Of a DNA stretch of 8,190 nt, positions 2,728-5,164 are shown in pieces. The DNA comes from a virus (taxonomy: Duplodnaviria > Heunggongvirae > Uroviricota > Caudoviricetes). Where the stretch lies: the IMG/VR virus record IMGVR_UViG_2609459797_000006; one strand, written 5' to 3'. The notes beneath the pieces were generated by a model, which saw only the letters and a list, made by a program, of their open reading frames with translations, did not search any database and was not told the origin of the DNA. How positions within the stretch are numbered: the stretch's first letter is position 1; every line of letters starts with the position of its first letter. A program made the position numbers and the translations under genes.

Positions 2728-2911
2728 AGCGAACCTCCTGAACTGGTAGACGGCCAGCGCATACCATCACGCAGCCAGCCGGTGATTGCTCACGGGCTTC
2801 GCGCTCAGTGTTAGCTGTGATGTGAATGACGTTGCGACCGATGGCGCTCAGTGCAAGAAAACGCCAGATGTAGGACTTCCGCCCTTGCGGGTGTGTGATA
2901 TGATCTTTCAT
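2720..2911 (-). CDS. Small hypothetical protein (63 aa; [18 protein letters not shown]...), first gene of the minus-strand operon leading to the helicase/primase
   Basis: Chosen start is the ATG at 2909-2911 with GAGG 6-9 nt upstream. The listed 324-aa ORF (2720-3694) extends this frame upstream across the opposite-strand RHH gene and looks spurious there. An alternative ATG at 2996-2998 lacks a Shine-Dalgarno. Confidence 0.45.
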
Positions 2912-2999
2912 AGCTGCCTCGTTACTTTCGCTAACGGTGGTGGTTAGAGGCCCGGTTAGTGTTCCACCACTGCCGGGCTTTGCTTTACTAAAAGTCATG

Positions 3000-3057
3000 C
3001 AATGTAGTACATTGTCAACTCCACTACAGACTAGACCACAGGAGTTGACAATGTCAA
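3000..3057. promoter_or_regulatory. Divergent promoter/operator region with nested palindromes built on TTGACA/TGTCAA half-sites
   Basis: Seen directly: perfect 15-bp palindrome CAATGTAGTACATTG (3000-3014); perfect 13-bp inverted repeat CATTGTCAACTCC (3010-3022) / GGAGTTGACAATG (3041-3053) with an 18-bp spacer; palindrome TTGACA-A-TGTCAA (3045-3057) spanning the RHH start codon. Lies between divergent genes. Confidence 0.55.
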
Positions 3058-3224
3058 CAAGCGAAAATAAAGAGCGCCATGTTGTGCAGCTCAGACTCGA
3101 TAAAGAACTGTCAGAGCGGCTCGCTTTAGCGATGAAAGAAGACGGTGACGATAATAAGTCGGGATGGATAAAACGCCTTTTGCGCCGTGAACTTGATAAG
3201 CGCGGCATCGAGCCAAAAGGCTGA
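3051..3224 (+). CDS. Small ribbon-helix-helix (CopG/Arc/Mnt-like) DNA-binding protein, 57 aa; candidate repressor of the divergent replication operon
   Basis: ATG at 3051 preceded by AGGAG (3042-3046). Sequence [50 protein letters not shown] has a beta-strand-then-two-helices layout typical of RHH proteins. Fold inferred from sequence pattern only. Confidence 0.55.
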
Positions 3225-3543
3225 ACAGGGTTACTCCCCGTAATGCTGTGGACTGCCCCTCTTAAAAAGGGTCTGTTTTGCGCAACTATTAATGAGTTGT
3301 GCAGAGGCTCCCCTCTTAAAGAGGGTTGGTTATCTTCGCAGCTCTCTACGTTTTTCGTCGGAGCCTCTAAACCACGTTTAACGTTGTTTTGCCATGAACC
3401 CGAATACTGTTCGCCTTTGTCTCGATCTCCGTACGTTAAACGTACGCGGTTAATTTGTGCGTACGGATTTCGTCGGCTCAAGGTTTGACCACCAGCGGCA
3501 AGCCTGGTAATCTGGCGATGTTTCTGTAAAGCGGTATTGCACT

Positions 3544-3571
3544 GGCGGCCCGGCATGGCCGCCTTTGTTTT
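3544..3571 (+). terminator. Rho-independent terminator on the plus strand (GGCGGCC-CGGCAT-GGCCGCC followed by TTTGTTTT)
   Basis: Perfect 7-bp GC stem with 6-nt loop and T-rich tail, seen directly. Sits ~320 nt downstream of the RHH stop and just outside the 3' end of the convergent 230-aa gene. Confidence 0.55.
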
Positions 3572-3576
3572 GCCTG

Positions 3577-4269
3577 TCATACAATAGCCTCCACTTTCAG
3601 CCCGCCAGCGGTATACCCCTGAACCCGAACACCATCGACGCGATGACGCTTTTTCGTCAGAAAGCGGATGTGATCTGCGTAGACGTACTGCCATTTACCA
3701 TCGAGTGCCACACGTTTAAACCACGGATGAGGCTTAGATATGGTCTGGACAACTGGCGCGGAAGCCTTGCAGGGCGTGGGTTCTGCTGTGCATACCCCCT
3801 TATCGTTACCCGTTACTCTATACAGCCAGTAACTTGCCAGCTTCCCGGTCAATTTACGGGTGCGCACGGGGATATAACCCGCCTCACGCATCGCCTTACC
3901 AAAAGTGGCATCGTCCGGGTAATACTGGCGGCGTAGTTCCGTAGATACTGAAACGGCAAAGCTGCGTTTAGTCGGGTATTCCTGCCACTGGCCGACAAAT
4001 TCAAAAGGAAGACCATTAACCCTTCCTTTGGTCTTGTCCTTGCCGCTTATCCCTACATCATGGTCTGCCTCATGCACGGACACGCCGGAACGCAGCCACA
4101 CCAGCCCGTTACCGTTGTGGCGCAACCCCAGATCGGCAAGCGTAAATTCACCGCGATTAATGGGCGACCAGTCACCGGAAATAACCTGTTTACGGTTCGC
4201 TGAAATATCGTGCTGGCTGGCTACAGGGTGAGCGAATCCCTGCCCGTGGAGGGCATTAATCTTTTTCAT
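3577..4269 (-). CDS. Hypothetical protein, 230 aa, encoded immediately downstream of the AlpA-like gene
   Basis: Uninterrupted ORF with ATG start 20 nt downstream of the alpA-like stop. No catalytic motif recognised; family not assignable by eye. Confidence 0.65.
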
Positions 4270-4830: not shown

Positions 4831-5030
4831 AAAGATGAACAATGATGAACGCTGATGAACAGTGATGAATAACCATGAACAAAGATGGAAAAAGTTAGCA
4901 AGTAATGACCTAGTAGGGACCGTGGATGGAGCTAGGTATTGTTAGGTGCTGTCGGGTGCCGTTACGTGTCATAACGTGTCATTACGTGTCGTTGAATGCT
5001 GTTGAATGCTGTTGAATGCTGTTGAATGTA
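4831..5030. repeat. Array of twenty phased 10-bp tandem repeat units in successive sub-families (ATGAAC-type x6, GGTGCT-type x3, TTACGTGTC x3, GTTGAATGCT x4), followed by very AT-rich DNA (5031-5164); candidate replication origin or protein-binding array
   Basis: Seen directly: 4831-4890 aaagatgaac/aatgatgaac/gctgatgaac/agtgatgaat/aaccatgaac/aaagatggaa; 4931-4960 gctaggtatt/gttaggtgct/gtcgggtgcc; 4961-4990 gttacgtgtc/ataacgtgtc/attacgtgtc; 4991-5030 gttgaatgct x3 then gttgaatgta. Strict 10-bp register throughout. No ORF present. Confidence 0.8.
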
Positions 5031-5164
5031 ACGGTAATACACATCAAATATAACAATTGAATCTCCTTGGCGATCATAGAATCGCCAAAAGCTCCAACAA
5101 ATATAATTAATTAGTATTTTCACATGAAATATAAATAATACCTACTAACACTGCAAAATAATAT

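Follow-up and report, generated by a model that had tools for sequence, protein, structure and literature searches.

The DNA analyzed here (the window) is an 8,190-nucleotide (nt) stretch, IMG/VR record IMGVR_UViG_2609459797_000006 of the Caudoviricetes, which holds a phage satellite island inserted next to yhdJ. Between its ribbon-helix-helix (RHH) gene (3051-3224, plus strand) and a convergent minus-strand gene for a protein of 230 amino acids (aa; 4269-3577) lies an interval of about 350 bp (3225-3576), which a prediction made from the letters alone had described as a structured non-coding region and a candidate small RNA. The convergent flanking genes are as predicted. The term non-coding is wrong, as the minus strand holds the first 118 codons of a 286-codon open reading frame (ORF), referred to herein as the bridge ORF. 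We show that the frame of this ORF is conserved while its peptide evolves almost neutrally, that it ends in a homolog of Icd and Kil, and that hairpin modules with T-runs lie across it almost exclusively on the plus strand. With a probability of roughly 0.6, we read the interval as the early-control region of a satellite of the phage-inducible chromosomal island (PICI) or capsid-forming PICI (cfPICI) type, in which two convergent expression units overlap: the terminator-array tail of the RHH gene on the plus strand, and the start of an ORF for ribosome transit, resembling eta/kil of phage P4, on the minus strand. The flagged 350 bp is probably not a small-RNA gene, and the bridge ORF is probably not a protein in the usual sense; its sole purpose seems to be the delivery of ribosomes to the next operon.

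An open frame across the interval

The features that define the minus-strand reading are as follows.

3580 to 2720, minus strand: eta-like bridge ORF of 286 codons (ATG 3580-3578, stop 2722-2720)
3592 to 3577, minus strand: putative coupling junction, read from the sequence, with GGAGG at 3592-3588, a spacing of 7 nt, and ATG (3580-3578) over TGA (3579-3577), that is, ATGA
4269 to 3577, minus strand: 230-aa gene, function unassigned, last of the alpA operon, to whose stop the bridge ORF appears coupled
2911 to 2720, minus strand: Icd-like/Kil-type gene of 63 aa with its own Shine-Dalgarno sequence (NCBIfam NF033153)
3051 to 3224, plus strand: RHH (Arc/CopG-like) gene of 57 aa (Pfam RHH_1, E=0.05, 14 bits against a cut-off of 20.5)

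The bridge ORF extends over the interval, the strand opposite the RHH gene, and the region of divergent promoters between the RHH and Icd-like genes, and ends as the Icd-like gene, whose stop codon it shares. From stop to stop the frame is open for 324 codons. The original prediction saw no convincing ORF in the interval; this stands for the plus strand, where an 81-aa frame is not conserved and was rejected because its reading frame differs between homologs, but it fails for the minus strand. In the phage record LR881103, the bridge ORF is annotated as a coding sequence (CDS; 8578-9552).

Over the 223 codons upstream of Icd, this frame has no stop, compared with 14 and 13 in the other two frames, and none of 20,000 dinucleotide shuffles kept all 223 codons open; the 118 interval codons alone stayed open in 94 of 20,000. 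Comparisons with related elements drew on 26 aligned regions, 28 distinct related regions, 33 unique relatives and 75 unique Icd-like loci, the last sample taking in one divergent group. The first five homologs were all open, for 310-366 codons from stop to stop, despite varied indels and block replacements, and at least 200 open codons (up to 493) were present in 31 of the 33 unique relatives, where the other five frames contained about 8-25 stops each. Among the 75 loci, the open frame upstream of Icd had a median length of 272 codons, whereas the figure for control frames was 7; in 72 of the loci a frame of 100 codons or more ran into Icd, and in 66 it was in-frame with Icd through many module swaps. 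The antisense frame of the RHH gene likewise contained no stop in any of 16 alleles, which gives modest support, as the chance of this is 0.17-0.69 for each allele by synonymous resampling and the alleles are not independent.

The signals expected of translational coupling are also shared. Three unrelated upstream genes each end in a start/stop overlap with the ORF, preceded by GGAG(G) at a distance of 5-8 nt (GGAGGctattgtATGA, GGAGAttcgcTGATG and GGAGGtgctgaGTGA), and from these signals the bridge ORF is predicted to be translationally coupled to the 230-aa gene. Six of the nine exceptions among the 75 loci keep a long ORF in another frame (L091, L094, L106, L108, L116 and L124): in two of these (L091 and L094) it overlaps the Icd start as ATGA, and in four it overlaps the whole of Icd out of frame. 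Such frameshifted variants point to ribosome transit and not to a fusion protein.

Openness of the frame is preserved, and the peptide is not. In the interval part of the ORF, the ratio of non-synonymous to synonymous differences (pN/pS) was 0.73 and differences fell evenly on the codon positions (8478/7546/9153), whereas the Icd part had a pN/pS of 0.45 with an excess at third positions. Single-nucleotide variants in conserved columns gave the same picture: 35 were synonymous and 72 non-synonymous in the upstream part (33% synonymous, versus 24% expected randomly), compared with 52 and 37 in Icd (58%). Neither Pfam nor other profile searches found a domain upstream of Icd, and residues 237-280 of the ORF match NF033153 (E=7e-14); the substitution pattern of the Icd part is of the coding type.

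These results bear on the view that the minus-strand ORF encodes a functional, long Eta-like protein, an N-terminally extended isoform of Icd with a separate function for its N-terminal 220 residues. The ORF is conserved and begins with an ATG behind a good Shine-Dalgarno sequence, gene callers annotate it, the matching PHROG families include long forms, and the literature treats P4 eta as a gene (PMC10111431). Nonetheless, we consider such a protein improbable, given the near-neutral evolution of the amino acids (pN/pS reaches 0.96 in the divergent-promoter part), the empty domain searches upstream of Icd, a length that module swaps shift between 265 and 493 aa, and natural variants that break the fusion yet keep the long ORF.

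Terminator modules on the opposite strand

The structured elements of the interval are listed in plus-strand order.

3225-3249, plus strand: hairpin ACAG-G-GUUAC-UCCCC-GUAAU-G-CUGU, directly 3' of the RHH stop (-9.5 kcal/mol)
3256-3281, plus strand: motif copy 1 (direct repeat D1), a weak hairpin CCCT/AGGG followed by TCTGTTTTG
3279-3303, either strand: hairpin UGCGCAACU-AUUAAUG-AGUUGUGCA (-11.7 kcal/mol), which gives LHNSLIVAQ in the minus-strand frame
3311-3336, plus strand: motif copy 2, a terminator-like hairpin CCCTCT-TAA-AGAGGG with the T-rich tail TTGGTTATCTT (terminator scan)
3430-3456, plus strand: perfect 17-bp palindrome CGTACGTT-A-AACGTACG with the tail CGGTTAATTT, terminator-like (terminator scan)
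3544-3573, plus strand: predicted strong intrinsic terminator GGCGGCC-CGGCAT-GGCCGCC followed by TTTGTTTTGC (scan; -16.2 kcal/mol)

The elements named in the original prediction are all there. The hairpin GCGCAACT-ATTAATG-AGTTGTGC lies at 3280-3302 (-11.7 kcal/mol), the 17-bp palindrome occupies 3430-3446, CGTACG comes a third time at 3460-3465, and the stem of the plus-strand terminator lies at 3544-3563, followed by TTTGTTTT; the near-duplicate motif exists as 18-mers at 3255-3272 and 3309-3326, 1-2 nt away from where it had been placed, and forms a 22-nt direct repeat (3256-3277 and 3310-3331, 86% identical). The interval folds well beyond shuffled controls on both strands (z-scores of -5.0 on the plus and -4.6 on the minus strand). 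No strand-specific fold beyond composition was found in it (a strand difference of -9.3 kcal/mol for the real sequence and -7.5 kcal/mol for shuffled ones), and most of its hairpins are perfect palindromes. It is therefore the T-runs, and not the stems, that carry the strand signal. A terminator scan found three plus-strand sites (3311, 3430 and 3544) within 350 nt and none on the minus strand, a fourth, weaker plus-strand hairpin falling under the scan criteria. When the 28 related regions were scanned uniformly, hairpins with T-runs numbered 77 on the plus strand and 6 on the minus strand, compared with 10±3 in shuffles.

The site at 3544-3573 of the window has the GC-rich stem-loop, the U-run and the compensatory changes of a Rho-independent terminator, and is predicted to act as one. 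It recurs in 26 of 71 long ORFs, with stem variants that remain paired (GGCGGCC/GGCCGCC, GGCGACC/GGTCGCC and AGCGGCC/GGCCGCT). It also abuts the complement of the bridge-ORF start codon, ending about 7 nt short of it, and across divergent elements the CAT that complements the ORF start often follows the T-run by 5-6 nt.

The other modules are conserved to different degrees. The block CTGAACAGGGTTACTCCCCGTAATGCTGT at the 3225-3249 hairpin is nearly invariant in the 26 aligned elements; in place of motif copy 1, relatives carry the stronger hairpins CCCCTCTTAAAGAGGGG or CCCCGATAATTTCGGGG, each followed by TGTTTTG; the 3279-3303 hairpin is kept in most relatives and missing or replaced in others; the 3311-3336 module, seen in nearly all of the 28 regions, lies within a nearly invariant block of 57 nt; and a 26-nt block around the palindrome is the most conserved piece of the region. 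As a whole, the 26-region alignment is a mosaic of modules, nearly all of which are a plus-strand hairpin with a T-rich run, and swaps preserve this form. In folding and covariance across relatives, to which the original prediction had pointed, the z-score is about -5 in 28 of 28 regions and the stem of the strong terminator covaries; the conserved object is a mosaic and not one fold. The same plan is found in the divergent element L140, with a 435-codon ORF, an antisense RHH gene of 59 aa and four terminators on the RHH strand. Since a transcript of the RHH gene would run into hairpin and U-run terminators and get no further than about 3571, the suggestion of a long structured 3' untranslated region of that gene was a fair description.

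The companion suggestion, an independent plus-strand small-RNA gene in 3225-3576 with its own promoter and a trans-acting immunity function like that of the P4 CI RNA, has strong structure, plus-strand terminators and repeated motifs on its side, and a weak match to a promoter (TTGACC-17-TAATCT, about 3485-3513) could yield an RNA of about 50 nt ending at 3571. Several findings nevertheless make it very improbable. No promoter-like site passes the scan: between 2700 and 4400, no sigma-70-like promoter passes a consensus scan, although an absence of this kind is weak evidence. Rfam gives no relevant match, either in the whole window at the gathering threshold or in 2900-3800 up to E=10; the P4-type CI (C4) and seqA (isrK) RNAs, both readily found by the same search in P4, are not found in the window. 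In P4, moreover, CI lies on the operon strand and not on the opposite one. The interval lacks a strand-specific fold, its modules are a mosaic and individually dispensable, and the repeated motif is single in L004 and absent in L031 and L037.

A different role for the RNA is quite possible, although on balance doubtful: that the 3' tail of the RHH mRNA, or a piece processed from it, is a cis-antisense regulator whose stem-loops pair with the complementary ones in the mRNA of the bridge ORF, as far as about codon 3. Such a tail would block translation or trigger cleavage or termination, and transcription of the RHH gene would then also silence read-through. This is compatible with the terminator-array and ribosome-transit explanation, to which it would add a layer. 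It is favored by a plus-strand terminator that, in many divergent elements, stops a little before the ORF start, by complementarity over the whole 5' part of the ORF (which follows from the geometry), by the UUAA-centred loops of the three main hairpins in the window, and by block conservation that exceeds the needs of terminators. It is also favored by a small ORF with a Shine-Dalgarno sequence downstream of RHH in L004, from which it follows that plus-strand transcription passes the RHH stop there. On the contrary, little RNA would reach 3571 if the first weak terminators work, the UUAA loops are not universal among swapped modules, and a strand-specific structural signal is missing. The L004 ORF itself (about 4837-5000, plus strand) encodes 49 hydrophobic aa behind a good Shine-Dalgarno sequence (AGGAGATAAAATAATG) right after the RHH stop, and the insertion leaves the minus-strand frame open.

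The conserved blocks, above all the palindrome, might instead be protein-binding DNA sites (an operator or roadblock, a packaging site or an origin) in which the hairpins are incidental, a possibility that we regard as unlikely. In its favor, the block GATGTCCGTACGTTAAACGTACGCGG is almost invariant across elements with differing RHH alleles, upstream genes and replicases, TTCGTCGG is repeated about 115 bp apart, and the palindrome 18-mer occurs in other satellite contexts, once right after another RHH stop codon. Against it, no candidate binding protein has been identified. That RHH alleles vary while the palindrome does not argues against the palindrome as the RHH operator. A replication origin is unlikely, because the blocks are shared by elements with unrelated replication proteins (a primase type here and a RepA helicase in L004), and nothing similar to the annotated ori/crr repeat clusters of P4 was seen. 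A cos or packaging site is likewise unlikely, as the linear record of vB_KppS-Ant, the genome of an induced particle, begins just upstream of terS, with the homologous region 8.5 kb away.

The exact 18-mer is present in 36 IMG/VR contigs, not always in the same context. Other satellites (L003 and L005, at 5001-5079 in both; L038, L049, L051, L062, L067 and L071-L073) carry elsewhere an 80-bp piece (window 3369-3447) and the exact palindrome CCGTACGTTAAACGTACG, either near a terminase gene or an element end or right after another RHH stop, often with the flanks GATGT...C(A/G)G. The palindrome piece behaves like a portable conserved module.

The RHH-Icd promoter region and the island

The RHH gene, the sole plus-strand gene of the island, is annotated by PGAP as a CDS, and in one relative as a HicB family antitoxin; we presume it to be the immunity repressor. 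Each of 16 distinct RHH alleles has its own pair of 11-14-nt repeats at the gene start, inverted or direct, about 18-25 nt apart and ending over the RHH Shine-Dalgarno sequence and ATG. The pair in the window is listed with the remaining genes of the island.

3009-3054, either strand: 14-nt perfect inverted repeat (I4), ACATTGTCAACTCC / GGAGTTGACAATGT, over the RHH Shine-Dalgarno sequence and ATG
4574 to 4290, minus strand: alpA (Pfam Phage_AlpA, E=5e-10)
Between the integrase gene and alpA, minus strand: 216-aa gene
7035 to 5815, minus strand: tyrosine integrase gene
2159 to 390, minus strand: primase-type gene

Lying in the divergent promoter region, the repeat at 3009-3054 is a candidate operator for RHH, and the allele-specific repeats look like repressor-operator co-variation that would define immunity types.

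Within the same region, a candidate short cis-antisense RNA (2896-2986, plus strand) faces the ribosome-binding site of the Icd-like gene. An extended -10-like sequence, TGaTATGAT, lies at 2896-2904, and two hairpins follow from about 2911, the second being terminator-like with UUUGCUUU. The terminator helix has 8 pairs with compensatory changes across 12 alleles, and pairing is kept in 162 of 168 cells on the plus strand (26 of them G·U) versus 137 of 168 on the minus strand. Rfam gives a weak symR-like match only (2912-2984, E=0.11). The RNA at about 2911-2986 (plus strand) is a better candidate for an antisense RNA of the immunity type than the flagged interval. On the minus strand, the 5' leader of Icd (2900-3010) offers alternative pairings, GCCCGG...CCGGGC versus GTGGTGG...CCACCAC, which suggests that a structured leader may modulate the Icd ribosome-binding site.

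The minus-strand gene order is int, a hypothetical gene, alpA, the 230-aa gene, the interval, the Icd-like gene, two hypothetical genes, DUF4222 and the primase gene. Close relatives are IMG/VR contigs of 15-18 kb and the 16.5-kb vB_KppS-Ant; they are capsid-forming PICI-like elements, as they carry capsid, portal and terminase genes. At its left edge (1-237), the window holds an IS1 InsB-like C-terminal fragment (ORF 16-237), and the island is seemingly interrupted or truncated by IS1 past the primase gene, where E. coli OW1E2 (L001), which like K. pneumoniae ATCC 13883 (L008) carries the element, has further genes.

Parallels with P4 and the proposed switch

The original prediction was right to connect this element with P4. 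Its analogy with the CI RNA fails, and the part that is shared, the nested eta/kil ORF, had been missed. In P4, where vis is the homolog of alpA, an ORF of 214 codons (8812 to 8168) has its start within vis and its 3' end in common with the 65-aa Kil; residues 161-208 of this ORF match NF033153 (E=1.4e-20). BLASTP of P4 Kil against the Icd-like protein of the window gave no alignment, and the homology of the two proteins is therefore based on the shared NCBIfam profile alone. The nested genes eta and kil of P4 reportedly come with an immunity terminator, timm, which is Rho-dependent and which translation of eta is said to suppress. In the Rfam search of P4, the C4 (CI) RNA falls at 8420-8507 and an isrK-like (seqA) RNA at 8615-8692, both inside the eta frame. 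According to a published account, a constitutive promoter lies inside eta and its transcripts are terminated through CI/seqA, Kil is a truncated form of Eta, and translation of eta from upstream transcripts prevents the termination (PMC10111431).

The two systems are alike in that a small Kil/Icd-like protein is the 3' end of a far longer ORF, which begins at the end of an upstream gene of the vis/alpA operon and crosses the early-promoter/immunity region, and in the gene order alpA/vis, eta, kil, ..., primase. The window thus shows a Kil-type end, a long in-frame ORF from upstream and coupling signals, with the position of the local promoter being inferred. They differ in that the immunity RNAs of P4 lie inside eta on the operon strand, whereas the ORF of the window holds an antisense RHH gene, operators and terminators; in that the window-type ORF is longer (286 codons here and up to 493 in relatives, versus 214); and in that it is coupled to a gene downstream of alpA and not to vis itself. 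By this comparison, an RHH repressor with allele-specific repeats appears to take the role of the C4/CI and isrK RNAs. The RefSeq record of P4 (L074) labels 8168-8584 a 'cI gene product, transcriptional repressor', and the PHROG families that match the window ORF are labelled 'transcriptional repressor', perhaps inherited from that old annotation.

Other systems share parts of the design. The immI region of P1 and P7 (c4 antisense RNA, icd, ant) is alike in having an Icd-family gene, whose translation is reportedly needed for downstream transcription, a block in the translation of icd being said to lead to Rho-dependent termination; the window has no detected C4 RNA, and its downstream genes are replication genes instead of an antirepressor gene. 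To our knowledge, P1 icd is not the end of an ORF of several hundred codons. The immI region of P22 combines the RHH repressors Arc and Mnt with the sar antisense RNA, which acts against the ribosome-binding site of ant. Here the likeness lies in the small RHH repressors and the divergent or convergent promoters, and the candidate RNA at 2911-2986 would parallel sar; the regulated gene is Icd-like and not ant, the likeness is one of layout without a shown sequence relationship, and we know of no bridge ORF in P22. With tandem intrinsic terminators between convergent operons, the interval shares GC-rich hairpins and U-runs on one strand only. In this case, however, the opposite strand carries an ORF that is kept open across them, and several are conserved beyond stem and U-run.

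We propose that RHH would repress the local Icd promoter as well as its own, and that the plus-strand modules would act as tandem intrinsic terminators in the untranslated RHH tail, stopping transcription of the RHH gene before its antisense entry into the alpA operon. On the other strand, ribosomes that finish the 230-aa gene would restart at the ATGA behind GGAGG, cross the terminator array, the RHH antisense and the RHH/Icd promoter region, and stop at the stop codon of the Icd-like gene. Selection would then act on an uninterrupted ribosome track and not on a peptide. Translation of this track would shield read-through transcripts of the alpA operon from premature, probably Rho-dependent, termination across a gap of 860 nt, and would also deliver ribosomes to Icd. 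The predicted direction of the switch is that induced upstream transcription would reach the replication operon even with RHH holding the local Icd promoter off.

Several points weigh against this proposal. Translation of the bridge ORF is deduced from its sequence. Three of the 75 loci have no long frame at all, the pN/pS analysis was built on a mosaic alignment, and the related loci are not independent, many being recently related or sharing recombined modules. With C at 0.25 and G at 0.25, the interval's minus-strand RNA lacks C enrichment, so that no rut site can be argued there; structured RNA is also a poor substrate for Rho. A Rho-sensitive site, if any, may be elsewhere, for example in the RHH antisense (C 0.28, G 0.20) or in Icd. 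Finally, terminators and a sequence-agnostic ORF would not call for the degree of conservation seen in the 26-nt palindrome block, the 57-nt block and the repeated TTCGTCGG. This excess makes an additional sequence-specific function likely, and the conserved blocks likely have a sequence-specific partner, either protein or RNA.

The finding would correct a likely mis-annotation, as PGAP leaves the roughly 350 bp blank, while other pipelines call a hypothetical protein or label RHH a HicB antitoxin. From the comparisons above, the arrangement is probably a variant of the eta/kil design of P4 that is widespread among Icd-carrying satellites. A broader version is rather speculative: Icd-carrying satellites (P4-like, PICI and cfPICI) might share a convergent-transcription switch, in which a sequence-agnostic ribosome-bridge ORF of several hundred codons leads induced upstream transcription into the replication operon and is opposed head-on by a repressor mRNA whose multi-hairpin 3' tail, perfectly antisense to the bridge, is both a terminator array and an inhibitor of translation or stability, and in which the RNA at about 2911-2986 may guard the Icd ribosome-binding site. 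If true, this switch would be a protein-plus-antisense replacement of the CI RNA immunity of P4 and a clear case of an ORF kept purely for ribosome transit across another gene. The model offers testable handles on the passage of PICI and cfPICI from the alpA induction module to replication, which is poorly described so far. Across both an antisense gene and a promoter region, the bridge ORF is also a natural example of a frame selected for its openness and not for its peptide. Should the model hold, the eta/kil logic of P4, wherein translation of a nested ORF immunizes upstream transcription against local repression, would be a general design of Icd satellites.

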